From: Acaryochloris marina S15
Lineage (GTDB): Bacteria > Cyanobacteriota > Cyanobacteriia > Thermosynechococcales > Thermosynechococcaceae
Direction: 5' to 3'
DNA: 32,000 nucleotides
Assembly: GCF_018336915.1 (NCBI RefSeq)
Contig: NZ_CP064923.1
Coordinates: 1,530,001-1,562,000 of the forward strand
Shown: positions 1 through 21,993 of the stretch, in pieces
Layout: each line of letters starts with the position of its first letter
How positions within the stretch are numbered: the first letter of the stretch is position 1
The notes under the pieces: model-generated
The model's input: the letters and a program-made list of their open reading frames with translations, nothing else
What the model was told of the DNA's origin: nothing
Database searches by the model: none
Translations under genes and position numbers: made by a program

Positions 1-1
1 G

Positions 2-5555: not shown

Positions 5556-5608
5556 GGAGTCAGGAAGGTGAACTCGATGATATGAATAGCTGTCTATTTT
5601 GAAAAAAA

Positions 5609-5842
5609 TAAACCCGGTCAGTTAAGTGCCTCTTCGTAAACCTCTTAGGACTGGATTGCTCAACTCGAGCGGGGCCGCCCTACTGTGGCTCGTTAGTTTC
5701 ATGGAAACTAAACCGTAACAGCCACAGTAGGGCGAAGCCCCGCACAGTAAAGAGCAAGCCAGTGATGCGCGTTTAGACTAATCACATGAATGGCGATGCA
5801 CCATTCGGGTTGCAAGGGGTAAATCGTAACCGACTGGGTTTT
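5609..5842 (-). ncRNA. Candidate retron msr-msd non-coding RNA
   Basis: Non-coding, on the same strand as the RT and 54 nt upstream of it.
- Long-range inverted repeat 5610-5624 / 5827-5841: 15 positions, 13 Watson-Crick plus 1 wobble. This is a1/a2-like.
- Small hairpin GAATGG-n7-CCATTC at 5788-5806, msr-like.
- Long hairpin at 5669-5743, msd-like.
- TACTAT -10-like hexamer on the minus strand at 5843-5848.
- U7 tract directly after the a2-like arm (plus-strand A-run 5602-5608). Confidence 0.55.
5669..5743 (-). repeat. 75-nt imperfect hairpin (candidate msd stem)
   Basis: Three paired segments:
- GCGGGGC (5669-5675) pairs with GCCCCGC (5737-5743).
- CGCCCTACTGTGGCT (5676-5690) pairs perfectly with AGCCACAGTAGGGCG (5720-5734).
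- The apical TTAGTTTC (5693-5700) pairs with GAAACTAA (5704-5711).
This gives about 30 bp of stem. The structure is certain; the function is inferred. Confidence 0.85.
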
Positions 5843-6545: not shown

Positions 6546-6691
6546 GTTCTTAGACTCATGGCTCGATCAACATTGTTTTGGGCTGGGGTATTGATTGTTA
6601 AACATCTGTTGTGAAGGCTGCGTATAATACCAATTTGTGTTTTGGGATGTAATTTAGATAGGATCTAATCCTATGTTCATTCCATAAGTAT

Positions 6692-7210
6692 ATGAGTCGA
6701 GTTAGTACAGTTAAACCGCATCTAACAGTGGATGAGGTGAAAGACAAAATTGCTACGGCTCCGACTGCCCGCTGTCAGCAAAAATGGATGATTATTTATA
6801 ACGCCCTGGTAGATCCTCGCCCAGCTATCGAAATAGCCACGCATACTGCTACTAGTCTTCGAACGGTCCATCAGGTGATTTCCGCTTACAATCGCCTAGG
6901 AGCAGCAGCAATTGCTCCTAGGGCTAAACGGAAGAAGAATCCCGGTGCTTATCTGAGTATCGAAGAAGAGATTGAATTTTTAGAATCGTTTATTGAACGT
7001 GCTCAACAAGGTCATTTAACAACGGTTCAAGAGATCCAAACGGCCTTTGAGACTAAAGTGGAGACGTCAGTGGCACCCAGTACTATCTATCGTTTGCTAG
7101 ACCGACACGGATGGCGCAAACTCATGCCTCGTCCGTCCCATCCCAATGGAAACAAAGCGGCACGAGAGGCTTTTAAAAAAACTTTCGGGGGCTGGTCCAA
7201 ACCGCTGTAG
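6692..7210 (+). CDS. IS630 transposase OrfA (HTH / winged-helix N-terminal part)
   Basis: The 172-aa ORF ends ...REAFKKTFGGWSKPL*. Its N-terminal region is helix-turn-helix-like (IEIATHTATSLRTVHQVISAYN..., STIYRLLDRHGW). Confidence 0.8.
   Translation: MSRVSTVKPHLTVDEVKDKIATAPTARCQQKWMIIYNALVDPRPAIEIATHTATSLRTVHQVISAYNRLGAAAIAPRAKRKKNPGAYLSIEEEIEFLESFIERAQQGHLTTVQEIQTAFETKVETSVAPSTIYRLLDRHGWRKLMPRPSHPNGNKAAREAFKKTFGGWSKPL
7175..7181 (+). promoter_or_regulatory. A7 slippery run, putative programmed -1 frameshift / transcriptional slippage site
   Basis: In TTT AAA AAA ACT (OrfA frame), a -1 slip on the A-run gives ...EAFKK|NFRGLVQT..., fusing OrfA to OrfB. Confidence 0.6.
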
Positions 7211-7755
7211 CAGATCGCTCAGCTGAAGACCAACGTCCCATTGTGATCATGGCAGCAGACGAAGGGCGCTTTGGTCGTCTAGGGCAAGTAAGAAGAGCTT
7301 GGTGTGCTCCTGGAATTCGACCCGAAAGTGGGCAGCAGCTTGTCCGTGAATATCTCTATGGCTATGTTGCTGTTGCTCCTGCGTTAGGAAAGATGAGTGC
7401 TTTAGTCTTACCCTTTTCCAATACTCAGATGATGAACTTATTCCTAGCACAAGTGGCGGATGAATTTTCAGACTATTTTGTGGTGATGCAGGTCGATGGA
7501 GCGTCTTACCACACCGGAAAGAAGCTCGTCATTCCAGACAATATACGCTTGATTGTTCAGCCTCCTCGAAGTCCACAACTCAATGCTGTAGAGCATATCT
7601 GGGAGGAGGTGAAAGAAAAGCACTTCTACAATCAGGTTTTTGATTCTTTAGATGAGGTATCCGATACCTTGTGCAAGGGACTCAAAGAACTCATGGATTT
7701 ACCCGATAGGCTGACTTCTATGACCAATTTTCCTCATATGAGAATTACGATTTAA
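7177..7755 (+). CDS. IS630 transposase OrfB (DDE catalytic part), reached by -1 frameshift from OrfA
   Basis: The frame is open from 7177 (KNFRGLVQTAVADRSAEDQRPIVIMAADEGRFG...). DDE triad context: AADEGRFG, VVMQVDGASYH, PPRSPQLNAVEHIWEEVK. The tracked start (GTG 7243) is internal to this frame. Confidence 0.8.
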   Translation, partial: KNFRGLVQTAVADRSAEDQRPIVIMAADEGRFGRLGQVRRAWCAPGIRPESGQQLVREYLYGYVAVAPALGKMSALVLPFSNTQMMNLFLAQVADEFSDYFVVMQVDGASYHTGKKLVIPDNIRLIVQPPRSPQLNAVEHIWEEVKEKHFYNQVFDSLDEVSDTLCKGLKELMDLPDRLTSMTNFPHMRITI

Positions 7756-7781
7756 AACGCAAATTGGTATAAGAAGACTCG

Positions 7782-8330: not shown

Positions 8331-8383
8331 TGATGTTGTGGAGGGGGTACCCAAGGCCTCTACAGGAATATGACACTCGGTGT

Positions 8384-8468: not shown

Positions 8469-8536
8469 CTAAGGCTTTCGTCATGCCTCCGTTGAATCAG
8501 CTCTGGCAAGAATTGGGCCTCTGTCCCTGCGTCCAT
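8384..8536 (-). CDS. Small 50-aa ORF, possibly the 3' part of a frameshifted ~88-aa gene (alternative ATG at 8649 in another frame)
   Basis: Below the track's size threshold. Translation: MDAGTEAQFLPELIQRRHDESLRAIGMMREETASALTGKYLEATKRLMFG*. Its C-terminal 28 codons are conserved at the protein level in a second copy at 12670-12754. The frame is open upstream only to 8584. Confidence 0.3.
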   Translation of the reverse strand: MDAGTEAQFLPELIQRRHDESLRAIGMMREETASALTGKYLEATKRLMFG

Positions 8537-8702
8537 TAGATGTTCTAAAGAATACCCTGAGGGACCCGTTTGTTGGAGATAGAGCTAGACCCACTTTTTC
8601 TAAAACAATCGGGACAAGCACTTCAGGTATAACACTGTCAGAATTCATAGCGTAAAAAATAATGGCTATATCTAAGGAATGAGGTGAGCCAGAAGAGATC
8701 TA

Positions 8703-10439
8703 CTACCAGCTCTCACCAGCTCCACCGCCACCACTACTACCTCCGCCAAAGTCACTCCCTCCACTGCTGCCACCATAGTCACCACCGCTATAGCTACTGC
8801 CACTGTCATAACTGCTGCTATAGCTTGATGAACTAGAACTGGAATATGAAGTTTTTGAGACTCGCGGGATCGTCACTCGTTCTTCCGTTTTCTGATGACA
8901 GCAAGCACATTCCCGAGTCAAGAGTTCTTCCCCATTAGAAGTGGTTGTCGCTTTCTCCAAGATTTCTGATGTGCTCGTCACCGTAAAAGCATTACAGTCA
9001 TCACAATGCGAGAATTTATAAGGATTCAGAACTTCTTGAAAAAGATGGAGATCAAATCCCATATCTGCTTGGGCAGAACTACAGGTTGGACATTGCCAAC
9101 CTTCAAACTGAGTACTGCCTATTTCTTTGGCAACTTTCTCTGCAGGTTTAAGGTATTCATCTAAGGTTTGATCCCCTAAATACTGCATCAGGCCATTACA
9201 AGATTGACATCGTACATCGATGTTGCAGGAAGGCGATCGCAACAACCGTAGCGTCCCTGCAGAGGCACCCCCCACCGCAGCAAACAAAGCAACAAAAACA
9301 TTTATGCTTCTGATACTGCTGGCCACAATCAGTACAACAGGAACGGCTACAAGGCCAAAAATCAACAGCTTGCTCAAGGTTGTTATGACTGCACTAGCGC
9401 CATTTTCATCACGCTTATTACAGCACCAAATTTCAAACCCAAACCAACCCCAGATCAGTAGTAATTTCAAGGCACTATAGCCTTCAATAATCGAAGATGC
9501 TAGCCAAAGACCGATTGCCAGCCCCAAGAAAGTGCACCAGCTTTGAAACACTTCTGTCGTCGGGTTAAATACGAGTCTGGTTTTAAGAGGCCGTCGTGGT
9601 CCATCATGACTCGTCACATCTCCTGCCAACCACCGTAATACCCAAACCCACAAACCCATCAAATTCAGTGATGTGTCTCTCTTCTCTTCATAAGTCGTGC
9701 GGCCTACTGGAGCGAACTTAAAGGAATGGCTCTTTCTAACGACTTTTACCAGCACAAACGATGTAGCCGTCACCACCCCTGTTGCAATAAAACCAACGAT
9801 TCCCTTAATAATGAGGTCGAAATTTTCAAAGATCCAAATGAGCCAGCCTAAATCAACAGACTCTCCTGACTCTTCACGGGTCGGCGGGGCAATGGTTCCA
9901 CCTTCTAAAACCTGGATGATTGCCTGAGTTCCTTTGACGATACCTGTATCAAAATTGCCTTGCTTAAAGTAAGGAGTAACCTGGGTGCGAAGAATATTGC
10001 CCACTTTCGCATCGGGGAGAATAGACTCTACGCCATATCCAGTCTCAATTTCTGTCCGGCGTTCGTTCTTCGAGACTAGAAATAAAATGCCATTGTCTTC
10101 CCCTTTTTTACCAATGCCCCAGGTATTAAATAGTTCAGTCGTAAACGCTTTGGGGGTTGCAGATGGTTGGGTATCGGGTACAGTTACCACTGCAATTTCG
10201 GCACCATTCCTTGCTTCCAACGCTGTAATCATCTGATTTAGCTGTGCTTCGCTGTCGGGACTGAGCACATCGGCCATATCCATCACCCAGTTATTGTCCT
10301 GGCGAGGGTTAGGAACTTCAGAGACTGGAATGGCCTGACTCGGCATCAGTGAGGATAGGGATAGAAGCAGGCTAAACCCCAGGGCAAAGAGGAAGGTCAG
10401 CGAGGTGCGCTCTCGCTGTCTAAGTCTGTTGGCAAACAT
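8703..10439 (-). CDS. TPM (YgcG-like) domain membrane protein with polytopic TM region, 4xCxxC zinc-ribbon-like module and Gly/Ser-rich tail
   Basis: Domains in order:
- Signal-like N-terminus.
- TPM block VMDMADVLSPDSEAQLNQMITALEARNGAEIAVVTVPD...GILFLVSKNERRTEIETGYG.
- About 5-6 hydrophobic segments.
- Cys pairs CQSC..CPTC..CDDC..CACC (aa 411-514).
- YgcG-type tail ...GGSSGGGGAGESW. Confidence 0.8.
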   Translation of the reverse strand: MFANRLRQRERTSLTFLFALGFSLLLSLSSLMPSQAIPVSEVPNPRQDNNWVMDMADVLSPDSEAQLNQMITALEARNGAEIAVVTVPDTQPSATPKAFTTELFNTWGIGKKGEDNGILFLVSKNERRTEIETGYGVESILPDAKVGNILRTQVTPYFKQGNFDTGIVKGTQAIIQVLEGGTIAPPTREESGESVDLGWLIWIFENFDLIIKGIVGFIATGVVTATSFVLVKVVRKSHSFKFAPVGRTTYEEKRDTSLNLMGLWVWVLRWLAGDVTSHDGPRRPLKTRLVFNPTTEVFQSWCTFLGLAIGLWLASSIIEGYSALKLLLIWGWFGFEIWCCNKRDENGASAVITTLSKLLIFGLVAVPVVLIVASSIRSINVFVALFAAVGGASAGTLRLLRSPSCNIDVRCQSCNGLMQYLGDQTLDEYLKPAEKVAKEIGSTQFEGWQCPTCSSAQADMGFDLHLFQEVLNPYKFSHCDDCNAFTVTSTSEILEKATTTSNGEELLTRECACCHQKTEERVTIPRVSKTSYSSSSSSSYSSSYDSGSSYSGGDYGGSSGGSDFGGGSSGGGGAGESW

Positions 10440-10744
10440 ATGTTGAATTAGCCTGTATTAAGGCTCTTAAGCAGCTATTTCTGGATATCTTTAGCATGCC
10501 CAGGATGGCCCCTATCCTGCTGAATCGTGGTTCAGGCAAGGGTCATCCGTGATACCGATCGCCCCATAAATACCAGAATTTAGCACTCTATCAGATTAGA
10601 ATCATCACCCCAAAATATGATGTAGAGCATTTGCAAATTAGACATCAGTTTTCTTGAAATAATCGGCCCCTCTCTCTGGAGGAATGATTAGATTGGAGTG
10701 CAACTCACCAGAAGACGTTGCAATAGATCTTGGAGGCCAGGAAG

Positions 10745-12376
10745 CTACGGTTTTATGAGTCGGTGTAAGTAGCAGGGTATGCTTACATAAACTTCAGAAG
10801 ACTGGTCACAATAAACGCATCGACCGACGATCAGCTTTTCGCCATCTACAAACCATTGTGCAGGTTGAACCACCCGAGCTTTACGATTTCGAACCGTATA
10901 GGCATCACACTCACTGCAATATCCAAACTTATCGGATTTCACAACTTCACGAAATAGATGAATACTGACATCGGTTTCTGTATGAGCAGGGCGACAAGTT
11001 GGACATTCCCAACCCACATGGCAGGTACTTTTAAGGGTTTTTGCTGCTTTTTCAGCTGGTTTTAAATAGCTCTCTATAGTTTTAGGTTCCAGGCATTGCA
11101 TCAGGCCATTACAGGATTGACAGTGTACTTCGGTGTAACGGGTGAGGGATCGCATCAGCAGTAACGTTCCCGCCCAAGCACCACCGAAAGCAGTGATGAG
11201 GTAAGGGGTTAATGCGGTCCTATAAATAAAAATATTCAGGATGCTAGCCAATATCAAGACTAAAATAATGGCGACTACATTACTGCGAAAAAGTCCACGA
11301 AATAGCGATATGGTTTCGCTGCCACCGTGATCGTCATGTTTAGCCCACCACCACAGTTCATACCCCAACCAAATGACCAGAAAACCCATGACCAATCCAT
11401 GGACATGGCGTACTGCCGTCTGATGGGAGAACACCACCCCTACAGATGAATAGGAGCCAAAGAAAATCCACCAGCTTTGAATGATTGGGCGAGTAAAATG
11501 AATTCCTTTATAGATAGGGAGAGTTTCTTCTCCCCCGACCGCTACCTTGCCTGTCCGCAACCAATGCAGTAGGGACGTCCGTATCCACCATAATCGACTG
11601 CCCTGGTTGGACAAGGTTGTACACCCCACTGGAGCAACCCGAAGCACTTGGCTTTTACGAACAATACTCATCAGCACAACCGCTGGAATCAGAACCAATG
11701 CCGCGAAGGTGAGACTCCACAAAACCAAGGTAGAGATAAAGAAACCGAGAGCCACGACAAACATCATCAGGATGACACCAATGATCGGAACATCGGCTGG
11801 CAGCGAGTAGATCTCTGATGGGTCCTCCTGTTCAAGCACCTCGATTACTGCTTGAGCACCATTAACGATACCTGCCTCAAAGGATCCTTGTTCCAAAGCA
11901 GGATAGATTTGGGTGGTCAGAATTTTATCGATTGTCCTCAGGGAAAGATCTAGGGTTTTTACATCCTTTCCTGTTTTAATGGCTGCATGGGGTTCCTCTT
12001 CAGAGACCAACAACAATATACAATCACTCTTCGCTTGCTCATCTATTTCCCAATGATTCAGCAGTTCATCAGCGAACTCGCTGGATGAAGCTAACGGCTT
12101 TATATCCGGCACCGTTACCACTATCAATTCGGTTCCACGCTTAGCGACTAACCCATCGATCATCTGCTTCAGTTGTTGCTCACTATCCCATCGGAGGATA
12201 TTCGCCTGATCCATGACCCAATTATTATCTTGACGCGGATCAGACACGTCAGATACTGGAATGGCTCGGCTCGGGGAGAGGGAGCCGAGGAATAGCCACA
12301 AGCTTATCCCTACAGCTAAAACAACTGTCCATAAGGGACGATAGTGATGTCCTTGTCTTTTTAAATTCACAATCAC
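10745..12376 (-). CDS. Paralogous TPM domain membrane protein with 4xCxxC module (no Gly/Ser tail)
   Basis: Same architecture as 8703-10439: VMDQANILRWDSEQQLKQMIDGLVAKRGTELIVVTVPD, TM segments, CQSC..CPTC..CSEC..CVYC. GTG start. Confidence 0.8.
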   Translation of the reverse strand: MIVNLKRQGHHYRPLWTVVLAVGISLWLFLGSLSPSRAIPVSDVSDPRQDNNWVMDQANILRWDSEQQLKQMIDGLVAKRGTELIVVTVPDIKPLASSSEFADELLNHWEIDEQAKSDCILLLVSEEEPHAAIKTGKDVKTLDLSLRTIDKILTTQIYPALEQGSFEAGIVNGAQAVIEVLEQEDPSEIYSLPADVPIIGVILMMFVVALGFFISTLVLWSLTFAALVLIPAVVLMSIVRKSQVLRVAPVGCTTLSNQGSRLWWIRTSLLHWLRTGKVAVGGEETLPIYKGIHFTRPIIQSWWIFFGSYSSVGVVFSHQTAVRHVHGLVMGFLVIWLGYELWWWAKHDDHGGSETISLFRGLFRSNVVAIILVLILASILNIFIYRTALTPYLITAFGGAWAGTLLLMRSLTRYTEVHCQSCNGLMQCLEPKTIESYLKPAEKAAKTLKSTCHVGWECPTCRPAHTETDVSIHLFREVVKSDKFGYCSECDAYTVRNRKARVVQPAQWFVDGEKLIVGRCVYCDQSSEVYVSIPCYLHRLIKP

Positions 12377-12669
12377 TAGAGATTTAAGTTACCCAGGAAT
12401 GGCGAGAGAAGTATTTATCGAACAACTCAAGGGATATCCATCAACTTTCCCAAATTCAATGAACGATTCGGCAAAAATAAGGAAGAAAGTTGAAAATTAC
12501 CCACGGACTTTCCCTGGCAATTTGGATGTTAAATTGGCGAACCTACCGATATGGTGAAATCCCCCTCACCAGCTTGAACCATGTCGCAAAGTCGGTTAGC
12601 CACCGTCACCAAACTAGCCCCGTATCATGGCTTTCCATCCCCTCTAGGAACATGACCAAAACAGCACCG

Positions 12670-12754
12670 TTAAGTAAAAATCAGACTTTCTGCCGTTTCT
12701 AGATATTTTTCAGTCAAAGCAGACGCAGTTGCTTGGCGCATCATACCAATAGCG
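12670..12754 (-). repeat. Copy B of the 85-bp duplicated gene tail (truncated small-gene remnant)
   Basis: Encodes ...AIGMMRQATASALTEKYLETAESLIFT*, compared with copy A ...AIGMMREETASALTGKYLEATKRLMFG*. Homology stops exactly at the SWIM gene stop codon (12755-12757). Confidence 0.8.
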
Positions 12755-14398
12755 CTACGAAACTGCCCGACTATGCTGCATCCGTAGAGCCAGAATATGC
12801 TCGCAGGGGCCTTTGAAGAGCTTATTTTGCTGATGCCAATTGCAAGTACATTCGCCGTGAACCATTCGCTCATCCCGATCAATGGCCACAATCGGCTGCA
12901 ATGTCTTATCCCCATGCTGAACCGTGCCTTGTAACAGCAGGGTACCCTTCCCATCCACCGAAGACTGACTAACCCGCACCGCATTTTGATCCAAGAATCG
13001 CGTGGCTTGGGCTTCCCGTTCATTGCTAAAGCGCAGCTTATCCATGGGGAGCGGATCGCGGGAGAGTTCTCGCACTCGGTAGACCTGCTTGTTGAGATCA
13101 TAAATGGCTCGTCCTGCTTGGGTATAGGCACTCAGTGCCCCTAACACCACGGACTGATCCAGCCCTAAACGCCTAGCCAGATCAGCCGGCGACTCCACCC
13201 AATTCTGTTTCAAGGCTTCAAATACCTGGCGCTTTGTCCAATCATCCACCTGGGCACGGGGGGCCATTAGGTCAAAATTTCCTGCTCGTGACCAATCATT
13301 GGCGGTCCATCCCGATAGACCTAACGTAAAGGACATATCGTTGAGGTCTGCCACGTAGAACGAGGGCAGTCCTGTACCCAACAAATGCACCGTAAACTTA
13401 CGGGCGACTGGAATCAGACGTTCTAAAATCATTAATCGTCGTCGTCCCCAAACTCGTACCATTTCTGGTTTATGCCCCTGATAAATAGAGCGGGCACAAA
13501 CAATTTCTTGGTCCCAGGGTTCTAGAACCATCCGAATCGGTTCTCCAGGAGTGAGGTGATAGCGGAGGCTGCGAGGGCCATGCTTTTCCCGGCGTCGGCG
13601 GAGGGCAAAGCAGAGGTTGTAAATATCCATCGGATGCAGGTCGAATTGGATGGCTGGCAGGGCCATGGCCGAACTGACTTGTAAAAAGCCTCGCACCCAA
13701 GTGTCGGGCAAATCAATTTTGACTTCTTTGTAGGCAGCCGTTCCCGTCGTTTCCACCTCAAAGCCAGAGGGATCGACTTCTAAAAGGGTTTGCCGGTAGC
13801 TGCGAATTTTTTGAAATTCGTCGTACAGGGTTGCTGAGTAGTCGACATTGGTGGTGCCACAGGCAAAGTCATTGACCTGATCAAAAACGTTATAGCTGGC
13901 ACCCAAGCGGCCATAACTGGACTCATCCTGGCTAAAACACTCAAAGAAAACCTCATCCGGATGAACCGTAATCACTGGGTCGAGGACAAACCAGGCATCA
14001 TAATCTTTGCGATAGAGATAGTTAAAATACTGTTGTCTAGCCTGATAAAACGGAGCTAACCGATTTGAACTACGGCGATGCAGGTCTGTGAGTTCAGCTT
14101 GAAAGGCTTCGAGTTTTTCGGTGACCTCTTGACGTTGAGCAGCCACCCGTTGCCAATCAATATCATCCCGCTGAGCCGCCCAGGCTTTATAAGCCGTTTT
14201 ATCTTGAGGCTGAAATCGCAAGTCAGAAACCACTACATCATGGAGGGCGCTGATGGCTTCGCGAAAAGCAATATTTTGCTGCAACTGTCCTCGAAAATAG
14301 GTCGGTTCGCGGGTCAAGTCTGGGGAGAAGGACATTTGGGCTTGGTCGCCTTGTCCCGATACCTGGCTATTCCGTTTGTAGTTGTAGTTAAACTCCAT
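12755..14398 (-). CDS. SWIM zinc-finger family protein (YehQ-like)
   Basis: C-terminal CxCx(n)CxH motif: CTCNWHQQNKLFKGPCEHILAL. The likely start is the MEFNYNYK ATG at 14398, 29 nt after the upstream stop. The tracked start at 14554 would overlap the upstream gene by 127 nt. Confidence 0.8.
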   Translation of the reverse strand: MEFNYNYKRNSQVSGQGDQAQMSFSPDLTREPTYFRGQLQQNIAFREAISALHDVVVSDLRFQPQDKTAYKAWAAQRDDIDWQRVAAQRQEVTEKLEAFQAELTDLHRRSSNRLAPFYQARQQYFNYLYRKDYDAWFVLDPVITVHPDEVFFECFSQDESSYGRLGASYNVFDQVNDFACGTTNVDYSATLYDEFQKIRSYRQTLLEVDPSGFEVETTGTAAYKEVKIDLPDTWVRGFLQVSSAMALPAIQFDLHPMDIYNLCFALRRRREKHGPRSLRYHLTPGEPIRMVLEPWDQEIVCARSIYQGHKPEMVRVWGRRRLMILERLIPVARKFTVHLLGTGLPSFYVADLNDMSFTLGLSGWTANDWSRAGNFDLMAPRAQVDDWTKRQVFEALKQNWVESPADLARRLGLDQSVVLGALSAYTQAGRAIYDLNKQVYRVRELSRDPLPMDKLRFSNEREAQATRFLDQNAVRVSQSSVDGKGTLLLQGTVQHGDKTLQPIVAIDRDERMVHGECTCNWHQQNKLFKGPCEHILALRMQHSRAVS

Positions 14399-14427
14399 GC
14401 AAACTCTCTCGACTTCAGGATTGACGG

Positions 14428-17400
14428 TTAAATACTTGAGGACAAGGCAGCAGGCTCTCGCACGGCGACGGGCTTTACCTGTAGAGGCACTGAGATCTGG
14501 GGATAGGCGCTGTGAATTTTTAATAAAATCTCCAATGCCCGAGCGCGATCGCAAATGGCAATCGTCACGGACTGGCGAGTCAGAATCTCGGCAATAATCT
14601 CTGCTGCGGTTAAGCTTTTGGTTGCTTCCGCTTCCAGGAAGGCATAGACCCGCTGCTTGGTCACCCGACCTCGATTTACTTGGGCTAACACCCGAGTAAA
14701 ATACGGCGTTAGCTCTTGCAGTCGCTGGGGATTATCCACCACATAGGTCTGCAGGTATTGGGTGGCAAACAGCTGCATATCGGTAGCAGGATGCTCACTA
14801 AATTTGAGCAAATAACCTTCCCCATCTGCATCACGAAAACATCGACTGACCAGATCTCGCCCCAGTTGGCGAACCTGGGGAAGATTACTATCACAAATAC
14901 TAATAACCACCGCAGGGGTCAGCTCATCGGGCTTCAGATCATCGCGAAACAGCTTAAATCCAAACTGGCGGGTATCTTCCCATGTGGACTCCAATACCCG
15001 GACGATATCCAGCAGATCCGATTCGCTCTGTCGTAACCGAGGCAAGATCGCTTCCAACATCTGCCATCCGGCTGTGCGTACAGACAGCATGTCATGGTGA
15101 GTGAATTGGGCAATATCAGCAGTGGGGAGGGTAGCAGACCAGGGATCGCAATGATGCTGCAACACATAACCCGCAATTTCCTGGGCTGCAGGAGAGTCTG
15201 ATTCTAGGAGTTTGTGAACCTGCTCAGGAGTAATATTGTCCATCCATCCCGGTAGAGCCTGGCGCAGCAGTTCCGTTAAAAAGCGATGAATGCCTTCCGT
15301 TTCTTCTGGCCCTTGCAATACCTCCAGCAGAGGTTGGGCTAGATGCTGACTAAAGCTAAGTTGGGCAGCAGCTATGCGCTGAATCGCTGGACGGATCGCC
15401 AAACGCATTTCGGCAAGGGGATGAGCGATCAGGGTGAGCAATAGCCCTGTTTGCTCCATCAGAACGGTATCGGGTAATTGACTGAGCAGTCGTACCCCAA
15501 CTACCCGCACGGAATCGAAGGGGGAATCAATCAGGGCATCAATCAGCCCCGGTGGGAGTTCTGTCACCGGAGTGGAATGGTTCAGCAGAATCCGCGCCCC
15601 AAAGGTCTGCATCTCAGCAGCGGGGTATCGCAAGATATCCAACACCACTTCCAACCCGAGGGTCCGCAGTTGAGCGCCAAAACTGAGAAAGAGGGTTTCG
15701 CTAATATCCGTGATCCAGTCCTCTGACGGGATGTTTTCGGGCTCCTGGTTTAAGAGAATGGCAATCACCTGACCCAAAATCGCCCGTGCCCTCGTATCTT
15801 CTAGCAAAGCTTTACTCAACAGTCGTCGAGTAAAGGCCCGCATATCGGCGGGTTTGCAGGTTACCAACTGGGCGATTAGCTGACTGTCGTTGAGAAACAC
15901 ATCTCGCTGAGCGGTAATCCAGGCTTGGGCTTGCTGGCGAGCGGGGGCATAGTTACAGGTTGCGATCGCAACCATCAATTCCCGATTCGGTTGGGAGGCA
16001 TCATAACGGGCCTGGGCTATTTCAAATCCCAACTGAGCCGTAATTTCATAGGGGCGCTCCAGCAGAAGAATCACGCTCTCCAAGGGTAGGCTCTCCAGGA
16101 AGGACCGACTAGCCCGAATGGCTTTAACCGCAAACTCATGCACCGGTTGGCAGCCGCTTTCCGACAATAAACGCAGCAAAGCGACCGGCTGTTGGTCCCA
16201 CAAATGGGGAAAGGCCTCTTCCCGTTCAGGGGGAGCTGGATCACCCGGCTTATAGGAGGACTGACAGCGCCAGGCTTTATTCGCAGGCTTAAGAACATAG
16301 CGAGGGCTCTGTTCATAGAGGACATGGTTAAAGGCGAGATACCCGGCAAAGAGATCCCAGTTAACGCGGCCCGTTTCCACCCGGCTATAGCTATTGCGCC
16401 AATCCCAGTGATAGAAAACCGACTCCCGAACCGACCCGGCATCCTCATCGGCATATTGCAATAACAGATCAACCGCAAACGTGACATAGCTTGAGTCTCC
16501 AGCCTGACCCAGCTTACGTAAAGTCCGCCAAACCCTCCGCCGCAGGTAGTCTCGGGTCTTGTCGCTAAAGGCTAACCGAGTGTCTGGACGTCGCTGTTCT
16601 GTCGTGATCGGATTATCAGTGGTCCGCTCATAGCGTCCGGTGCGGGAATTATAGGTATATCCGGCATAGAGGTATTCCCCATCCGGCAGTCGCACACCAT
16701 AGCCTTGGTTACGATATAGCGCTTTTTCTTGCTCAAACCGATAGGCCAGCAGGCCAAAGACTTCGGTATCCTGCCGATATTCAGCCATTTTGAAAATATG
16801 CCGCAGTCGCTGGAAGTAGCTGGGGCGCAGGGGTGCTGTTTGAATTACCTCAAGCACAGCGGGTCGAGTCACCTCACTATCGATCTGATACAGCAGATCG
16901 AGCACGGCCAAGGTCTGGGGAGAGGCATTCGGATCTAAGGTACTTTTGAGGGTTTGCGTCAAAGCGCTGGCTGGACCTTGTCGAGTCAAGGTTCGCAAAT
17001 CCGGTGGTAACTGCACCATTAGCTCTTGCCGCAGGGCATCTCGTTGGGCCGCAGTTCCTAGTTTGAACAGCGCTTCTAGGGTAATACGCTGCACAAACTC
17101 TGCCCCAGGCTGACGGTAACGCTGTTCTAAGGCGGTATAGGTGCTTTGATCGCCACATTGACCTAGGGCCCAGGCGATACAGTAATTTCTCAGATCTTCT
17201 TGTCCCCAAAGTTGCAGCAACAAAGGAGCCGCAGCCTGAATTTTTAATTCCCCTGCTCGCCAGATCACCCGATTCAGGGGCCACTCCTTAGCCACAGGGC
17301 GAGTTGCTGCAGGAGATTGAAGGGCTGCTGCTAAGCGATTTAAGATAGCTTGCGATCGCACATTCGGATCAATCGGTGTCTCGACTGGGGCAGGTGTTGG

Positions 17401-17673
17401 GGAAGCCGTCGTTTCAGGTGGATTAGCTTCTCCCGTACTAACCCGATAGCCTTTCCGCAGCTTGGCATTGATCAGCCGGTCAAAAATACGCTGGGCCATT
17501 TCTAAAGGCACTGCAGAAACCGTTTCTGAACCTTCCTTTAAAGCAGTGCCTTGGCGACCATAGCGAAAATTGACCACATAAGCGCCCTCACTCACCTGGC
17601 ACAGATCCACCTCATACACTTTTTCAGTGCGACCCGCTTGATAAACCAGGGTGGTTCGCTGAATCAGTTGCAT
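14428..17673 (-). CDS. 1081-aa WGR domain protein with HEAT/ARM-like helical repeats (MolR-like)
   Basis: The N-terminal KVYEVDLCQVSEGAYVVNFRYGRQGTALKEG...LINAKLRKGYRV is WGR. HEAT_PBS-like repeats follow (VIWRAGELKIQAAAPLLLQL...CIAWALGQCGD). The remainder is alpha-helical. Confidence 0.75.
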   Translation of the reverse strand: MQLIQRTTLVYQAGRTEKVYEVDLCQVSEGAYVVNFRYGRQGTALKEGSETVSAVPLEMAQRIFDRLINAKLRKGYRVSTGEANPPETTASPTPAPVETPIDPNVRSQAILNRLAAALQSPAATRPVAKEWPLNRVIWRAGELKIQAAAPLLLQLWGQEDLRNYCIAWALGQCGDQSTYTALEQRYRQPGAEFVQRITLEALFKLGTAAQRDALRQELMVQLPPDLRTLTRQGPASALTQTLKSTLDPNASPQTLAVLDLLYQIDSEVTRPAVLEVIQTAPLRPSYFQRLRHIFKMAEYRQDTEVFGLLAYRFEQEKALYRNQGYGVRLPDGEYLYAGYTYNSRTGRYERTTDNPITTEQRRPDTRLAFSDKTRDYLRRRVWRTLRKLGQAGDSSYVTFAVDLLLQYADEDAGSVRESVFYHWDWRNSYSRVETGRVNWDLFAGYLAFNHVLYEQSPRYVLKPANKAWRCQSSYKPGDPAPPEREEAFPHLWDQQPVALLRLLSESGCQPVHEFAVKAIRASRSFLESLPLESVILLLERPYEITAQLGFEIAQARYDASQPNRELMVAIATCNYAPARQQAQAWITAQRDVFLNDSQLIAQLVTCKPADMRAFTRRLLSKALLEDTRARAILGQVIAILLNQEPENIPSEDWITDISETLFLSFGAQLRTLGLEVVLDILRYPAAEMQTFGARILLNHSTPVTELPPGLIDALIDSPFDSVRVVGVRLLSQLPDTVLMEQTGLLLTLIAHPLAEMRLAIRPAIQRIAAAQLSFSQHLAQPLLEVLQGPEETEGIHRFLTELLRQALPGWMDNITPEQVHKLLESDSPAAQEIAGYVLQHHCDPWSATLPTADIAQFTHHDMLSVRTAGWQMLEAILPRLRQSESDLLDIVRVLESTWEDTRQFGFKLFRDDLKPDELTPAVVISICDSNLPQVRQLGRDLVSRCFRDADGEGYLLKFSEHPATDMQLFATQYLQTYVVDNPQRLQELTPYFTRVLAQVNRGRVTKQRVYAFLEAEATKSLTAAEIIAEILTRQSVTIAICDRARALEILLKIHSAYPQISVPLQVKPVAVREPAALSSSI

Positions 17674-17694
17674 GCAAATATTCCTATCGATTCA

Positions 17695-17730
17695 ATCAAC
17701 AAGGGGAGAGGAAGCAAAAGGCTTGTTGAT
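17695..17730 (-). promoter_or_regulatory. 9-bp perfect stem / 18-nt loop hairpin in the 5' leader of the WGR-HEAT gene
   Basis: ATCAACAAG (17695-17703) pairs with CTTGTTGAT (17722-17730). It lies 22 nt upstream of the ATG at 17673. No U-tract follows it. Confidence 0.3.
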
Positions 17731-17875
17731 AGTATTTATGTACTAATTCTATGTCACCTTTATCCCAACAGCAAGTCCATCCTTCCAGGACATAGCCCGT
17801 CAGGGGCCAGATGCAGAAATCATCCCCCTAGGTTTCCCACCGTCACGCTCTAGTCTTGCTTTTTAACCGATCAAT

Positions 17876-19198
17876 CTAGGATTCTTGGGCAAACTCTTCT
17901 GGATCCGTATCCCAATTCACCCAGCGAATGGCTTCTCGGGCCGACTGAATACTAGGGGGTACCCGAGTGGCGTGAATATAGCCGGTACTGGGGCAGGTCA
18001 TTTTCAATAAATAAATCGGTTCCACATCAATCGCGGGGGCAATGCGCAACAGGGTATATTCTCGCCACGTATTGAGGGCTTCGGCCTGCAGTTCCTGACA
18101 CAGGCGGTCATAGCCAATGCCCTGAATCAACACCCGCCGCAGTTCGGCATTCTGTTCATGGATTAGCCAATCTGCCTTCCAGATATGGGGATGGACAGTT
18201 CCGTATCGCTCAGGAATTTGAACCCCATGAAATTGATAGCTGCGATAGCCATCTGCAAACTGGAGGGCTTCCCCTCCTTCGTAGTGAAAGCGTCCTTCTG
18301 GGTCTGCATGGCACTTTAAGGGCCGATCAAACACCACACAAGTTTGCTCAAAGGGAAGGATTAAACCGCAATGGGTCGATAGGGATCGCAACTGGGTCCA
18401 CGCTTCTAGATCATGATCGCAGTCTAAGACCTCAATGCAATAGTCTAAAAGAGCAGGATGTAAGACTTCAGAGGTTTGGGTCAAGGCTTGCCAGCCAATA
18501 CCCACTAGCCCCATAGTTGTCAGCATTTGTTGCATCCCCTGTTCCCAGGCCTGCACCTCTGGCTGTTGACGAAGCGGGTGGATCAAGGCATCTTCTAAGG
18601 CTTGCCCCACAGGCTCTCCCCATTGCCACAGGGTTTCTCCCACCTGTACCAACAAGTCTCCTCCAGGCTGGCTTTGAATCACCTGCCGCCATTCCGTTTG
18701 TTGCTGTTGCCACAGCTGGTCCCAAAGACTGGGTGACCACTCTCCCCAAGGGACAGTGTCTTCTTCTACATTCTGAGTGTTCCAAGCAAACAGCTCGGCC
18801 AAGGGAGTCCAAGTAATCAGGTTCAAATTGTGAGATAGGGTCGCTAATTCGGCAACCTTTAATCGCTCACTCATCTCTAACAGCAATTCCACCCTGAGCT
18901 GAGACCGAATTTGATGACTAAGCTGCCGGGCTAAAGGCAGGGTCAACAAAGGTACCCCCCACTGGTTGAGCAGTTGATCGATCCGGCGCTCTTGTAGGTA
19001 AGCTTGGGCCTCTAAAGGACCTGAAAAACATAGAATTTCAGGTTGTTGCTTCCCCATCAGAGCGTAACTTCGCTGGATGGTTTGCGTTACTTGTTGGGCT
19101 TCAATAGGGGTTGTATTGCAAGTAACTGCTAGCCAACGCTGGAAGAACTCCTCAATTTGCGCATCTTGAACTGGCGTTAAGGTCTCAATCGGCCACAT
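17876..19198 (-). CDS. Hypothetical protein, C-terminal domain resembling what I recall as DUF6745
   Basis: C-terminal block FDRPLKCHADPEGRFHYEGGEALQFADGYRSYQFHGVQIPERYG...IHEQNAELRRVLIQGIGYDRLCQEL...YTLLRI. The MWPIETL ATG at 19198 overlaps the upstream stop by 14 nt. The tracked start is 19270 and an alternative ATG lies at 19219. The family assignment is from memory and unverified. Confidence 0.6.
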   Translation of the reverse strand: MWPIETLTPVQDAQIEEFFQRWLAVTCNTTPIEAQQVTQTIQRSYALMGKQQPEILCFSGPLEAQAYLQERRIDQLLNQWGVPLLTLPLARQLSHQIRSQLRVELLLEMSERLKVAELATLSHNLNLITWTPLAELFAWNTQNVEEDTVPWGEWSPSLWDQLWQQQQTEWRQVIQSQPGGDLLVQVGETLWQWGEPVGQALEDALIHPLRQQPEVQAWEQGMQQMLTTMGLVGIGWQALTQTSEVLHPALLDYCIEVLDCDHDLEAWTQLRSLSTHCGLILPFEQTCVVFDRPLKCHADPEGRFHYEGGEALQFADGYRSYQFHGVQIPERYGTVHPHIWKADWLIHEQNAELRRVLIQGIGYDRLCQELQAEALNTWREYTLLRIAPAIDVEPIYLLKMTCPSTGYIHATRVPPSIQSAREAIRWVNWDTDPEEFAQES

Positions 19199-19496
19199 AA
19201 TGCCAACCTTCTGGCTCATATTCCCGTTGAATACGAACCTGCCAAGTTCCCTGAGGAATGGCGAGGGCATTGTGTTCTTCGTGGATTAGGGTGGCTTCGG
19301 GAGAAAGAACCCGTAAGTAAAGGGTGCCGTCCTTTTCGTACAGCTCGGCTTGTCCTTCACTAATACGATGGCTATGCCCCGTCACTTCACCTTCCGCCAA
19401 CGTTAAATGAGAAAGTTGACGACCTAAGCTGGGCGTCGTTTTGGACAAAGGTCTGAGGATTACATCACCTTGACGAATGGGTTGCATCTTTGTCAT
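19185..19496 (-). CDS. Small beta-rich protein of a phage-associated family (QGDV...GE-TGH-H...HEEH...QREY motif pattern)
   Basis: Sequence: MTKMQPIRQGDVILRPL...LAEGEVTGHSHRI...LIHEEHNALAIPQGTWQVRIQREYEP. A GGAGGAG lies 11 nt upstream of the ATG at 19496. The tracked start at 19526 adds 10 aa. Confidence 0.6.
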   Translation of the reverse strand: MTKMQPIRQGDVILRPLSKTTPSLGRQLSHLTLAEGEVTGHSHRISEGQAELYEKDGTLYLRVLSPEATLIHEEHNALAIPQGTWQVRIQREYEPEGWHYVAD

Positions 19497-19615
19497 CTCT
19501 CTAATGTCTCCTCCATTGTGGCACATGCATTTAAGACATCTTCCCAGCCCCCCTTCTCTATAATGGAGGTCGAGAAATTCCTAGGCTTTGACATTATTCT
19601 CTCAAATCGAAAATT

Positions 19616-19639
19616 GGCATCCATCATAGAACGGATGCC
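19616..19639 (-). terminator. Candidate intrinsic terminator after the NACHT gene
   Basis: On the minus strand: GGCAUCC - 10-nt loop - GGAUGCC, followed by AAUUUUCGAUUU. It starts about 54 nt downstream of the NACHT stop (19693). Confidence 0.45.
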
Positions 19640-19692
19640 TGCTGGGGAAATAGTGGTTTGGGGGCAGTTGGCGATGTGCCTTTTTCCCAGAG

Positions 19693-21993
19693 TTAAGCGG
19701 TCAACACTTTATTAAAACCAAAAAGCTGAGCTTCTAGTTCTGCACGCACTAGAGGAGAAACATAGCAGTCCCCATACAAACACTCCACTAGGGTTTGTAA
19801 CATCCCAAAATAGTCTTTGAGTTTTCCTTGGGTATTTAGGTCACTAAACCATTGAGGTTGGAACCCACGATATTTCACCATCACAGCCTGCAGGGCTGCT
19901 TGCCATTGCTGTCCCTGCTGTTGGTACCAAGCCTGTAAGGTTTCTGCATCCGCTGATTCTTCCGGTAGCTGGTCTTTCAGATCTTGCAGCGATTGCCATA
20001 GTTGTGGATCAGCACAAATACTTTCATCAATCGCTAAGAAAGTGGGCAGAAAGGTAAACGCGGGTAGATCCTGTGTTCCTTGACGCTGCATAGCCCTAAC
20101 CGTTAAGAACAAGGCATAGTCAATGGCTAGATCAGTCGGTAAATTTTGGGTGAAGTTCGGGGCGATACAATTAGCCAAACCTGGATCATCTCGCAGGATA
20201 AGGCTGATATAAAAGGCCGTAATCGGTAAGGGTTGATCTGTTGCCTGCAGTGTACTGACTTTCGTTTGCACAGCCCCCAAAAAGTTTTGTACTTCAGGCT
20301 GAGAACTGGGTATGTCATTGACAGTTGCTAGCAACTGCTGGACAAACGTGTTGGCATTCGGCAGCAAGCTCGCCGTCAGTAAAATCACTTCTCGCCACCG
20401 AGAATCGGTGATCTGAGTCGCGAGCTGACTCAGAGATTCATCGATTGTTTCAGGAGTGGCAATAATTTTCCGAGCCGTTAAATATTCCTGAAAGGTGAGA
20501 TGAGAAAAGGAATAAACTTCCTTGGCCCGCTGAACTAAAAGGCCCGACTGCAGCTCAATACTCTTGAGAATGGCTGCACTGCGAGACCAAAGGGTCTCAA
20601 AATCTTGGGGCTCTGGGGCAATGGATTGGAGATAGTCGGCAATCAGGTTGAGGACTTGGCGTTGCTCAAAGTAATAATTACCCTCGGCAAACGTCGTGGC
20701 GGCAATCTGACAGAGTAATGTAATCGTTTCAGGTTTGGATAGGGAAAATTCATCCGCTTCCCGCTTAATGCCCCGAGCTTGATCCCATCGTTCGAGGAGG
20801 ATTTCTAAACCGGCCTGATAGAGTTTGGCGCGCTTGGTCGGAAAAGCCATGCGCTGTTGAAAGATGGAACAAATCAACCCCAACAGCAGCGGTGAAGCCG
20901 TTAAATTCTGGAGGGCCTGATTTTCGGGCTGGCGCAGCTGCTCTAGAAATTGGGCGGCCTGGGTTAATCCTCCGGTTTTGGAGTTGCGGGCTGTGGCCAC
21001 AAAATAGCGACGGGCAAACACTTCCACCTGACTTTTTTGAAAGTCTGCCAATTCAATATAGTTAAAGCCTTGAAAATGGTAATGCTGAGCCTCGATCCGG
21101 CAGGTAATTAAGATTTGATTTTGGTAATACTCTTCCGAAAACTGCTGGATTTGGGTCAAGATACTTTGGTTGAGGGAAGCCGGGACTTCATCCAAGCCAT
21201 CCAAGAGTAAAAGCACTCGTCCTCGGTCTAATAAGCCCTTGACTTGCTTAATATCTAGACCACACCGCTGCCAGAGTTGGTGTAGATAAGTCAATAAACT
21301 GCTATCTGTGGCATCTTGCGTTTGGGTCGCAAAGGTTCGCAAAGACAGAAAAACAGGAATACATTCAGGTTTATAGCGACCTTCATTACATTCCAAAGCC
21401 ATATGGCGCAGAAATGTGGTTTTTCCAGCCCCTGGTTTACCTAGAATCACTACCTTGTCCTGGTTTTGCAGGATATCGATGCTAGTCAGGGTAGAGCCGT
21501 AAAGGGGAACCTCTTCTTCATTACTGGAGGATTGCCGTTGCTGGAGGTCAGACACTTCTAGCCATTGTTGATGGCTGAGATTAGAAAGGAAGTTGACCCC
21601 CGTATAGACTTGGTTCAGTTGGACGGGCTGGGTGATATCCAGAGAGGATTGTAATGCACCACACTGGGCTTGGATTTGGCCTCGCAGTTGCGATCGCACT
21701 TTCTGTACCCAGGTATCCGCTTCTAAATCCGTCTGTTCTTCCGAGACCGTCGCATTGGGAATCGGGAACTGAGGCAAAATCGCGATTTCTTGCCACTCCA
21801 AATCGAGCTGAAAGCACAGATCAATAAAGATATGCCGTTCAATCGGGCGGCCAGTGAAAAACTTCCAGACAGACTGTCGGGTTTCCAAGCCAACTTGCTC
21901 AGCCAAATAGGCTTGAGTCCAGCCTGTTCGCTGAAACGCTTGTTTTGCTATAACTTGACCCCGTTCCGAGGCATTGAGCGATCGCTTTGCCAT
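19693..21993 (-). CDS. HTH(XRE)-NACHT STAND NTPase with helical C-terminal region
   Basis: N-terminal HTH: GWTQAYLAEQVGLETRQSVWKFFTG. Walker A: ILGKPGAGKTTFLRHMA. Walker B: VLLLLDGLDEV. The ~330-aa C-terminal region is helical with no obvious repeats. Confidence 0.85.
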   Translation of the reverse strand: MAKRSLNASERGQVIAKQAFQRTGWTQAYLAEQVGLETRQSVWKFFTGRPIERHIFIDLCFQLDLEWQEIAILPQFPIPNATVSEEQTDLEADTWVQKVRSQLRGQIQAQCGALQSSLDITQPVQLNQVYTGVNFLSNLSHQQWLEVSDLQQRQSSSNEEEVPLYGSTLTSIDILQNQDKVVILGKPGAGKTTFLRHMALECNEGRYKPECIPVFLSLRTFATQTQDATDSSLLTYLHQLWQRCGLDIKQVKGLLDRGRVLLLLDGLDEVPASLNQSILTQIQQFSEEYYQNQILITCRIEAQHYHFQGFNYIELADFQKSQVEVFARRYFVATARNSKTGGLTQAAQFLEQLRQPENQALQNLTASPLLLGLICSIFQQRMAFPTKRAKLYQAGLEILLERWDQARGIKREADEFSLSKPETITLLCQIAATTFAEGNYYFEQRQVLNLIADYLQSIAPEPQDFETLWSRSAAILKSIELQSGLLVQRAKEVYSFSHLTFQEYLTARKIIATPETIDESLSQLATQITDSRWREVILLTASLLPNANTFVQQLLATVNDIPSSQPEVQNFLGAVQTKVSTLQATDQPLPITAFYISLILRDDPGLANCIAPNFTQNLPTDLAIDYALFLTVRAMQRQGTQDLPAFTFLPTFLAIDESICADPQLWQSLQDLKDQLPEESADAETLQAWYQQQGQQWQAALQAVMVKYRGFQPQWFSDLNTQGKLKDYFGMLQTLVECLYGDCYVSPLVRAELEAQLFGFNKVLTA

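Follow-up and report, generated by a model that had tools for sequence, protein, structure and literature searches.

Five adjacent genes at 12755-21993 on the minus strand of a 32,000-nt stretch of the Acaryochloris marina S15 genome (hereafter, the window) raise the question of whether they constitute one composite conflict or defence island, as the original prediction proposed, or several units that happen to adjoin. All five ORFs were confirmed on this strand, and direct reading of the sequence reproduced the junctions of 196, -14, 202, and 29 nt. The domain assignments (NACHT, DUF6745, WGR/HEAT, and SWIM) were correct by Pfam; the SWIM match was weak (0.0088), but the exact CxCx12CxH motif was found. 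The original prediction had also allowed for up to three sub-units whose linkage might be coincidental, and this reservation was borne out, the sub-units being found independently elsewhere. The first unit is the NACHT gene, the second is a small ORF with the DUF6745 gene, and the third is the WGR-HEAT gene with the SWIM gene. We consider it highly probable that these three independent units meet in the flagged block and that WGR-HEAT and SWIM are the accessory half of a type XIII retron. [quoted passage not shown]

The WGR-HEAT gene (14428..17673, minus strand) encodes a WGR plus HEAT/ARM protein of 1081 aa, which matched the PADLOC profile WGR_XIII over its full length (E = 0, 1157 bits) and Pfam WGR (1.1e-4) and HEAT_2. 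It lies 29 nt upstream of the SWIM gene (12755..14398, minus strand), whose 547-aa product matched SWIM_XIII over its full length (2e-243). This product carries a DEDE-type motif (D-x7-D-x4-E-x32-D-x38-E) at residues 140-225 and a C-terminal SWIM motif, CxCx12CxH (CTCNWHQQNKLFKGPCEH), at residues 517-534; its AF2 model (pLDDT 48) was too poor for testing the winged-helix part or a nuclease/transposase fold. Retron type XIII, whose RT belongs to clade 10, was defined by Mestre et al. (2020, NAR; PMC7736814), and the genes analysed here agree with that definition domain for domain, including the CxCx12CxH and DEDE motifs. Judged by these profiles and motifs, the SWIM protein is predicted to be the primary associated protein of a type XIII retron and the WGR-HEAT protein its accessory protein, the two together forming a putative effector half.

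The remaining parts of the retron were found at 4125-5840, outside the flagged coordinates. A type XIII RT of 476 aa is encoded at 4125..5555 (minus strand) and was identified by the PADLOC profile RT_XIII (3.8e-198, as against 1.7e-103 for the second-best profile, RT_other) and Pfam RVT_1. Its active site is intact (YADD at residue 340), and among PDB entries the RT of retron Ec86 was matched at 1.7e-44. An nhmmer profile located an msr-msd ncRNA at 5609..5840 on the minus strand (E = 3.3e-55), the sole copy within the window; no Rfam family covered this interval. Its predicted fold has a minimum free energy of -104.7 kcal/mol (z = -7.8) and is closed by an a1/a2 stem (a1 at ~5841-5827 paired with a2 at ~5624-5610), with an msr hairpin at ~5806-5788 and a long msd hairpin at ~5743-5668, all on the minus strand. 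Compensatory changes were observed in 32 of the 44 pairs. The share of alignment cells able to pair was 91.7% (shuffles, 76.5%; slid controls, 31-42%), and none of 500 shuffles reached the observed values.

A gene at 2720..4141 (plus strand) converges on the RT gene with a 17-nt overlap and encodes a protein with a WGR domain (Pfam, 2.9e-16) and beta-propeller families. The same arrangement with RT was found in A. marina MBIC11017 and in L009, and in 6 of 78 other loci the gene is located within 10 kb of SWIM. Window positions 2687-17875, which include this gene, form a single 15.2-kb indel relative to the Acaryochloris-like genome L091, the only genome that defines it. The WGR-beta-propeller protein may be a fourth retron component.

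The partners of the WGR-HEAT/SWIM pair were sought among 80 related SWIM loci, 78 of which are non-Acaryochloris. The only gene clusters that recurred among the 80 were SWIM (80), WGR-HEAT (66), and RT (46); in the 78, the recurring parts were limited to WGR-HEAT, SWIM, ncRNA, and RT, and homologues of NACHT, the small ORF, and DUF6745 were present in none. WGR-HEAT was found in 58 of the 65 loci with sufficient upstream sequence, and RT in 37 of the 50 with at least 9 kb of downstream sequence. In most loci the ncRNA lies 16-50 nt past the SWIM stop; the distance is at most 200 nt in 56 of 75 loci, and nine loci carry two copies.

These features can be set against what is known of type XIII. 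In common with it, the system here has the RT family, a SWIM protein with the DEDE and CxCx12CxH motifs, a WGR-like plus HEAT/ARM gene ahead of the SWIM gene, a structured msr-msd RNA that combines an a1/a2 stem with a long msd hairpin, and signs of vertical inheritance. It differs in that the accessory genes are separated from ncRNA and RT, by 7 kb in the window and by as much as hundreds of kb in sister strains, in that most cyanobacterial relatives have the ncRNA joined to SWIM and not to RT, in the two ncRNA copies at nine loci, and in the WGR-beta-propeller gene that travels with RT. Production of msDNA by type XIII retrons is known by experiment for Mx162, Mx65, Ne144, and Sa163 (PMC7736814). 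The literature searched contained no demonstration of defence by any type XIII retron, and no experiment showing msDNA or a phenotype for a cyanobacterial one.

A retron RT primes from the 2'-OH of a branching G and yields msDNA with a 2'-5' branch, and WGR domains bind nucleic acids. From general retron biology, the RT here would use the 2'-OH of a branching G beside the a1/a2 stem and convert the msd hairpin into msDNA. By the same analogy, the RT-msDNA complex would then join the WGR-HEAT scaffold and also the DEDE/SWIM protein, which is a candidate for a nuclease or transposase-derived effector. Action in trans may be possible, given that the parts are intact though hundreds of kb apart and that purifying selection acts on the accessory genes compared. 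The system could either serve in defence against phages or have been domesticated for a function in the cell.

Strong purifying selection was evident in the accessory genes compared; dN/dS was 0.04-0.08 for the five flagged genes, to which this comparison was confined, RT lying outside it.

In the window, the distance from the SWIM stop is 6.9 kb to the ncRNA and 7.2 kb to the RT start, both of which lie downstream on that strand. Between the halves are five to six unrelated genes and an insertion sequence, and the retron is not linked in a single locus here, whereas linkage of ncRNA and RT with the associated genes is the norm in other cyanobacteria. Part of the intervening DNA is a direct-repeat-flanked segment (8483..12696, minus strand) that does not belong to the retron. 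It carries two TPM-domain paralogues, one at 10745-12376, the one scanned with Pfam (TPM_phosphatase), and one at 8703-10439, which was assigned by sequence similarity. The segment is absent from the 78 other loci and from the RT locus of MBIC11017, where homology ends at window position 8482. The truncated duplicated gene that the original prediction placed at the distal boundary was confirmed at 12697..12753 (minus strand), directly 3' of the SWIM stop; it is 89% identical to 8411-8467 and derives from the 3' end of a ~50-codon ORF at 8384-8535 (minus strand). Homology to L001 and L002 stops at 12764/12765, and the truncated copy marks a rearrangement junction. An IS630-like element (6627..7770, plus strand) with 37-nt terminal inverted repeats lies between a DEDDh exonuclease gene and orf169, and is precisely missing in MBIC11017. 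The TPM-gene segment, the exonuclease gene, and the IS630-like element were placed between the retron halves by rearrangement. The RT locus of MBIC11017 (CP000828, ~4.83 Mb) retains the ncRNA and is collinear with window positions 1-6615 and 7775-8482, and its SWIM locus is at ~4.55 Mb. In five other Acaryochloris genomes, the accession spacing from RT to the accessory genes ranged from 7 to more than 3000.

The small ORF and the DUF6745 gene, which precede the retron half, were examined as to whether they belong with it. The small ORF (19185..19496, minus strand) encodes a conserved 103-aa protein with GEVTGHSHRI and HEEH motifs, and the DUF6745 gene (17876..19198, minus strand) encodes 440 aa (PF20530, 3.1e-23). 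They overlap by 14 nt, the ATG being at 19198 and the TGA at 19185-19187, and this overlap, which is usual for the gene pair, is repeated in L081, L083, L090, and L091. In six distant cyanobacteria, DUF6745 is preceded by an ORF 72-78% identical to the small protein, immediately in L081, L083, L085, L094, and L096, and at ~1.1 kb in L095. Within the Acaryochloris lineage the small protein is 84-95% identical in L001, L002, L090, and L091, and degraded in L092. DUF6745 has 1270 homologues, mostly cyanobacterial, and its AF2 model (pLDDT 81) had no fold match in the PDB. The two genes are a translationally coupled, independent two-gene cassette that is widespread in cyanobacteria.

It is conceivable, though improbable, that the small ORF, DUF6745, WGR-HEAT, and SWIM form one functional transferable module of Acaryochloris, in which the phage-shared cassette would supply the effector half with a new sensor or regulator. 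The four genes share one orientation, similar dS values (0.4-0.76), and purifying selection, and in MBIC11017 they moved as one block, homology spanning exactly 12765-19543 with unrelated DNA on either side. Given this joint move, the cassette and the retron half may have a link peculiar to the lineage; a single shared rearrangement is, however, weak evidence in an often-rearranging genus. Against such a module, L090 and L091 carry small-DUF6745 without WGR-HEAT/SWIM, the homology of L091 ending at the DUF6745 stop. Besides, the two units were never found together in the 78 SWIM loci or in seven non-Acaryochloris DUF6745 contexts, the latter having no homologue of WGR, SWIM, RT, or NACHT. The 202-nt gap between the two pairs also argues against it and contains a promoter-like site at 17757-17729; the hairpin that had been reported there was not supported, the gap being no more stable in folding than its shuffles (z = +1.4).

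Slightly less probable still is that WGR-HEAT and SWIM are a stand-alone nucleic-acid-sensing pair that functions without RT or msDNA, the linkage to RT being historical only. The distance between the halves would fit this reading (~275 kb in MBIC11017; in CCMEE 5410 and Moss Beach, hundreds to thousands of loci), as would the 13 of 50 related loci with no RT within 10 kb. However, RT is kept at 90% identity or more in every NCBI Acaryochloris genome listed, and in Cyanosarcina it is located in the same genome, though on a different contig. The RT within 10 kb in the other 37 of the 50 loci and the attachment of the ncRNA to the SWIM gene described above also speak for a retron, as does the co-evolution of RT with the WGR-HEAT cluster (Mestre et al., PMC7736814).

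The NACHT gene (19693..21993, minus strand) encodes a STAND NTPase of 766 aa with a NACHT domain (Pfam, 1.8e-19), a C-terminal NCH2 domain (6.9e-23), a Walker A motif (GKPGAGKT) at residue 185, and a Walker B motif (LLLLDG) at residue 261; no Pfam family matched residues 1-170. It is present in L001, L090, and L091, and absent beside the block in L002. The gene is syntenic with an upstream response regulator and histidine kinase, and is a separate unit of this conserved Acaryochloris neighbourhood, which L090 and L091, two divergent Acaryochloris-like genomes, keep in the order histidine kinase, response regulator, NACHT, small ORF, and DUF6745 with no adjoining WGR-HEAT/SWIM. The terminator-like hairpin that had been predicted in the gap between NACHT and the small ORF was recovered at 19616..19639 (minus strand) as a 10-bp stem (19639-19616) followed by a U-containing tail (AATTTTCGAT); terminator-like matches over the whole region numbered 10, compared with 10.3 in shuffles, and were thus not in excess. 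Like antiphage bacterial NACHT proteins (bNACHT/NLR-related), the protein has a NACHT module, intact Walker motifs, and an NCH2 helical domain. Unlike them, it has neither an effector domain nor a repeat sensor domain that could be recognised, its gene is in synteny with two-component genes throughout Acaryochloris and is subject to purifying selection, and its scores fell far below the curated NCBIfam equivalog cut-offs (EruA, 34 bits against 1000; DS8, 26 against 790), which places it outside these families.

It is very unlikely that the five genes together make up one conflict island, with the NACHT STAND NTPase standing in for the MoxR-vWA module of a Yeh-like WGR/SWIM system. In favour of an island, all five share one orientation and adjoin each other both in the window and in L001, the domains WGR and SWIM occur, and NACHT proteins can serve in defence (the sole PADLOC match here was a weak one, PDC-S60 at 1e-10, and phrog_18297 matched at 7e-35). 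However, the absence of NACHT from the 78 loci and from beside the block in MBIC11017, its separation from the rest by the terminator-like hairpin, the two genomes with NACHT-small-DUF6745 alone, a dS of 1.78 as against 0.4-0.76 in the other four genes, and RT and ncRNA as the recurrent partners of the pair all contradict it. The original prediction had itself named independent occurrence of the sub-units as evidence against an island, and that is what was found.

Yeh-like neighbourhoods (the E. coli yeh genes) combine MoxR-vWA with WGR/SWIM genes. The locus is similar to them in pairing a WGR plus alpha-helical repeat protein with a SWIM zinc-finger protein. It is dissimilar in that the MoxR/vWA gene is absent from the window (ten proteins scanned with Pfam) and from the related loci, and in that retron RT and ncRNA recur while NACHT does not; clustering of the ORFs of 81 loci gave no recurrent NTPase. 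WGR proteins of the MolR/YehI type combine WGR with DUF4132; the Pfam search of the WGR-HEAT protein gave WGR, and no DUF4132 at E <= 0.01.

The small ORF-DUF6745 cassette is also carried by Ma-LMM01-type cyanophages, and the small protein matched phrog_27831 (1.8e-16). In Microcystis phage Ma-LMM01, gp175 and gp174 (39% and 31% identical to the cassette proteins, respectively) have the arrangement seen in the window, that is, a small GEVTGHxH protein preceding a protein with the PF20530 C-terminal domain. Unlike the cyanobacterial pair, phage gp174 is without the N-terminal half of the DUF6745 protein, and the phage genes are located among DNA-metabolism genes (uracil-DNA glycosylase and DNA polymerase).

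Five consecutive ORFs on the minus strand, encoding a NACHT protein (19693-21993), a small protein (19185-19496), a DUF6745 protein (17876-19198), a WGR-HEAT protein (14428-17673), and a SWIM protein (12755-14398), were present in the window. When the ORF starts were set to 19496, 19198, 17673, and 14398, the junction sequences matched all four predicted spacings, namely 196 nt, a 14-nt overlap, 202 nt, and 29 nt. The domain assignments were upheld by Pfam (NACHT with an NCH2 helical domain, DUF6745, WGR with HEAT, and SWIM), and the weak SWIM match was supported by an exact CxCx12CxH motif. A terminator-like hairpin of 10 bp was found in the gap between the NACHT gene and the small ORF (19639-19616), while the hairpin proposed for the 202-nt gap between the DUF6745 and WGR-HEAT genes folded no better than shuffled controls (z = +1.4). 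The truncated duplicated gene proposed at the distal boundary was located at 12697-12753, immediately past the SWIM stop codon, and showed 89% identity to 8411-8467, the 3' end of an ORF of ca. 50 codons.

The original prediction grouped these genes into a five-gene conflict/defence island with a STAND NTPase. This grouping has to be abandoned because its sub-units were found apart in other genomes, the finding named beforehand as telling against it, and the accompanying caution that there might be three sub-units was correct. What is actually present is a split type XIII retron beside two unrelated units. A STAND/WGR/SWIM island is a tempting but wrong grouping; a pipeline or a reader that clusters genes by adjacency would produce it and would overlook that two genes of the block make up half of a retron, the reverse transcriptase (RT) and RNA of which are encoded beyond the flagged region. 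The retron in the window may also escape tools that demand contiguous genes.

The WGR-HEAT protein gave a full-length match to the PADLOC profile WGR_XIII (E = 0, 1157 bits), and the SWIM protein matched SWIM_XIII (2e-243). Outside the flagged region, an ORF on the same strand (4125-5555) matched RT_XIII (3.8e-198). These three families make up the protein side of retron type XIII (Mestre et al. 2020, PMC7736814), whose RTs form clade 10, which includes Mx162, Mx65, Ne144, and Sa163. In the same study, the primary protein of type XIII was described as combining a winged helix with a DEDE motif and as carrying a SWIM finger (CxCx12CxH) at its C terminus; a WGR-like HEAT/ARM protein usually preceded it. 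Both the DEDE motif and the CxCx12CxH finger are present in the window SWIM protein, and YADD is present in the RT, whose nearest solved relative is the retron Ec86 RT. Sequence searches of the PDB found no relatives of the SWIM and WGR-HEAT proteins, and an AF2 model of the SWIM protein, for which the 37 available homologues were all at least 70% identical, reached a pLDDT of only 48, too low to bear on a candidate nuclease or transposase fold.

The fourth part of the retron, its RNA, was identified by aligning the sequences upstream of RT genes, which revealed a conserved element of ca. 230 nt. A profile built from 60 copies had a single match in the window (minus strand, 5840-5609; E = 3.3e-55). 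RNAalifold predicted 44 pairs with compensatory changes in 32 of them; 91.7% of cells in the named structure could pair, compared with 76.5% in shuffles and 31-42% with slid partners, and the covariation was 0.435 vs 0.164, with none of 500 shuffles reaching the observed values. For the window copy, the fold has a free energy of -104.7 kcal/mol (z = -7.8) and comprises a long msd hairpin and an msr hairpin together with a closing a1/a2 stem. This element is the msr-msd RNA of the retron. A search of the whole window at the Rfam gathering thresholds gave no match, and an E-value search of 5400-6100 gave only sub-threshold matches of miRNA hairpins to the msd stem, so that no curated family covers this ncRNA.

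A scan with the SWIM protein, taking one genome per species, yielded 80 loci, mostly cyanobacterial, the nearest being those of Acaryochloris (94-95% identity). These loci were analysed by tblastn with all window proteins and by all-against-all ORF clustering. Only three gene families were recurrent, SWIM (80 loci), WGR-HEAT (66), and RT (46), usually in the order WGR-HEAT, SWIM, RT on a single strand. Among the 78 non-Acaryochloris loci, WGR-HEAT was found in 58 of the 65 that had enough upstream sequence, and RT in 37 of the 50 that had at least 9 kb downstream. The NACHT, small ORF, DUF6745, TPM, and exonuclease genes were found in none of the 78. The ncRNA starts no more than 200 nt past the SWIM stop codon in 56 of 75 loci, usually 16-50 nt past it (among L003-L080, for example L024:6679-6909 and L034:11653-11878); the window ncRNA adjoins RT instead of SWIM. 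The position next to SWIM is also kept at loci where RT is kilobases away or was not found within 10 kb or the fetched flank. Nine loci (L027, L030, L041, L050, L058, L059, L073, L075, and L080) carry two ncRNA copies, typically one after SWIM and one before RT, and their msd stems differ in sequence. That SWIM genes throughout the cyanobacteria have a template RNA tethered to them deserves specialist attention.

The relatives of the S15 strain revealed where the units of the block separate. In A. marina MBIC11017, the homologous stretch at the SWIM locus is exactly 12765-19543 (SWIM through the small ORF), and the DNA flanking it is unrelated on both sides; in Acaryochloris sp. IP29b_bin.137 (L001), it extends further, through the NACHT, response regulator, and kinase genes. 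Two divergent Acaryochloris-like genomes (L090 and L091) keep the order kinase, regulator, NACHT, small ORF, DUF6745, and nothing retron-like follows DUF6745 in either of them. In L091 (10324-10397), a metagenome contig, the DUF6745 stop codon is followed after 47 nt by a convergent homologue of the window kinase encoded at 86-2686. Since these genes are only 47 nt apart there, 2687-17875 of the window (15.2 kb) corresponds to a single indel relative to L091, containing the WGR-beta-propeller, RT, ncRNA, orf169, an IS630-like element, the exonuclease gene, two TPM genes, SWIM, and WGR-HEAT. Its boundary lies at the DUF6745 stop codon; therefore, the 202-nt gap belongs to the retron block.

In MBIC11017, the RT locus (exonuclease, orf169, ncRNA, RT, WGR-beta-propeller, kinase) is collinear with 1-6615 and 7775-8482 of the window and lies ca. 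275 kb from the SWIM locus. Judging by accession spacing, SWIM and RT seem to stand seven genes apart in two further A. marina strains, which matches the window, and hundreds to thousands of genes apart in CCMEE 5410, Moss Beach, and one more A. marina strain. RT is present in MBIC11017, CCMEE 5410, Moss Beach, NIES-2412, and others among the cluster members listed, with at least 90% identity across the listed strains. None of the five flagged genes is disrupted in the compared relatives, and all are under purifying selection (dN/dS 0.04-0.08). Acaryochloris offers natural variants for tests of action in trans, with the two halves seven genes apart, hundreds of kilobases apart, or, as a 15-kb block, missing from this position, and these split and absent variants are worth specialist attention.

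From general knowledge of retrons and Mestre et al., the RT would make msDNA from the msd hairpin, and the RT-msDNA complex would bind WGR-HEAT and control the DEDE/SWIM protein as an effector. For type XIII, WGR-HEAT was reported to co-evolve with RT, and vertical inheritance and possible domestication were suggested (Mestre et al. 2020, PMC7736814). Because both halves are retained when unlinked, we infer that they act in trans. A broader and rather speculative reading is that the type XIII retrons of cyanobacteria have been domesticated and are passed on vertically, as systems of four parts (RT, ncRNA, WGR-HEAT, and SWIM), perhaps five with the WGR-beta-propeller. In this reading, the gene to which the template RNA is normally tethered is that of the SWIM effector, not RT, and the parts act in trans wherever they lie on the chromosome. 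Such systems would more likely serve housekeeping or stress than phage defence of the classical mobile kind, and Acaryochloris would be a natural split-retron model for testing this.

The first of the two units beside the retron is the small ORF with DUF6745. DUF6745 has 1270 homologues, mostly cyanobacterial, and seven non-Acaryochloris contexts (L081, L083, L085, L092, L094, L095, and L096) were studied. A gene of ca. 100 codons with 72-78% identity to the window small ORF lies upstream in six of the seven, directly so in five, and the 14-nt overlap is identical in L081 and L083; in L092, the small-protein gene is reduced to degraded fragments. On a metagenomic cyanobacterial contig (L095:6001-8403), two DUF6745 genes stand in tandem, and the small-protein gene is 1.1 kb upstream, not adjacent. 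No WGR, SWIM, RT, or NACHT homologue was found near DUF6745 in any of the seven contexts. The same pair in the same order is gp175-gp174 of Microcystis phage Ma-LMM01 (NC_008562.1, 154027-155558), where it adjoins a uracil-DNA glycosylase gene near the DNA polymerase gene, and it also occurs in at least eight Ma-LMM01 relatives. Since the pair recurs without retron or NACHT homologues, and in these phages, it is an independent cassette and a separate, uncharacterised lead that is worth specialist attention. The AF2 model of DUF6745 was confident (pLDDT 81), and no PDB fold matched it in Foldseek (no hit below E = 1.4). A link between STAND genes and DUF6745 outside Acaryochloris was considered, as NB-ARC genes lie near DUF6745 in L092 and L094, yet their families, orientations, and distances differ, and STAND genes are common in cyanobacteria, which counts against such a link.

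The second unit, the NACHT protein, has intact Walker motifs, and its scores fell well short of those of the curated antiphage NACHT families. In a comparison of the window with L001 (2406-4703), its gene had a dS of 1.78, compared with 0.4-0.76 in four adjacent genes, at similar dN/dS, which suggests a different history or a faster rate. Farther along, between the histidine kinase gene and argS, 25001-26000 has a GC content of 0.32 against ca. 0.47 around it and contains no ORF of at least 100 aa.

Within the 15.2-kb segment, a gene encoding WGR and a beta-propeller (2720-4141, plus strand) is convergent with RT, with a 17-nt overlap, an arrangement that L009 and MBIC11017 share. Of the 78 other loci, 6 have a homologue (60-71% identity) no more than 10 kb from SWIM, at positions that vary. 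This recurrent neighbour may be a fourth protein of the retron system and is worth specialist attention. The IS630-like element (6627-7770), which has terminal inverted repeats of 37 nt and a transposase encoded by two ORFs (6692-7210 and 7243-7755), is precisely missing from the otherwise collinear MBIC11017 locus and is a window-specific insertion. A 4.2-kb segment bracketed by direct repeats of ca. 57 nt (8411-8467 and 12697-12753, 89% identical) contains two paralogues that have TPM domains and Cys-rich C-termini (8703-10439 and 10745-12376). Excision of the segment between these repeats would set SWIM directly upstream of the exonuclease-orf169-ncRNA-RT block.
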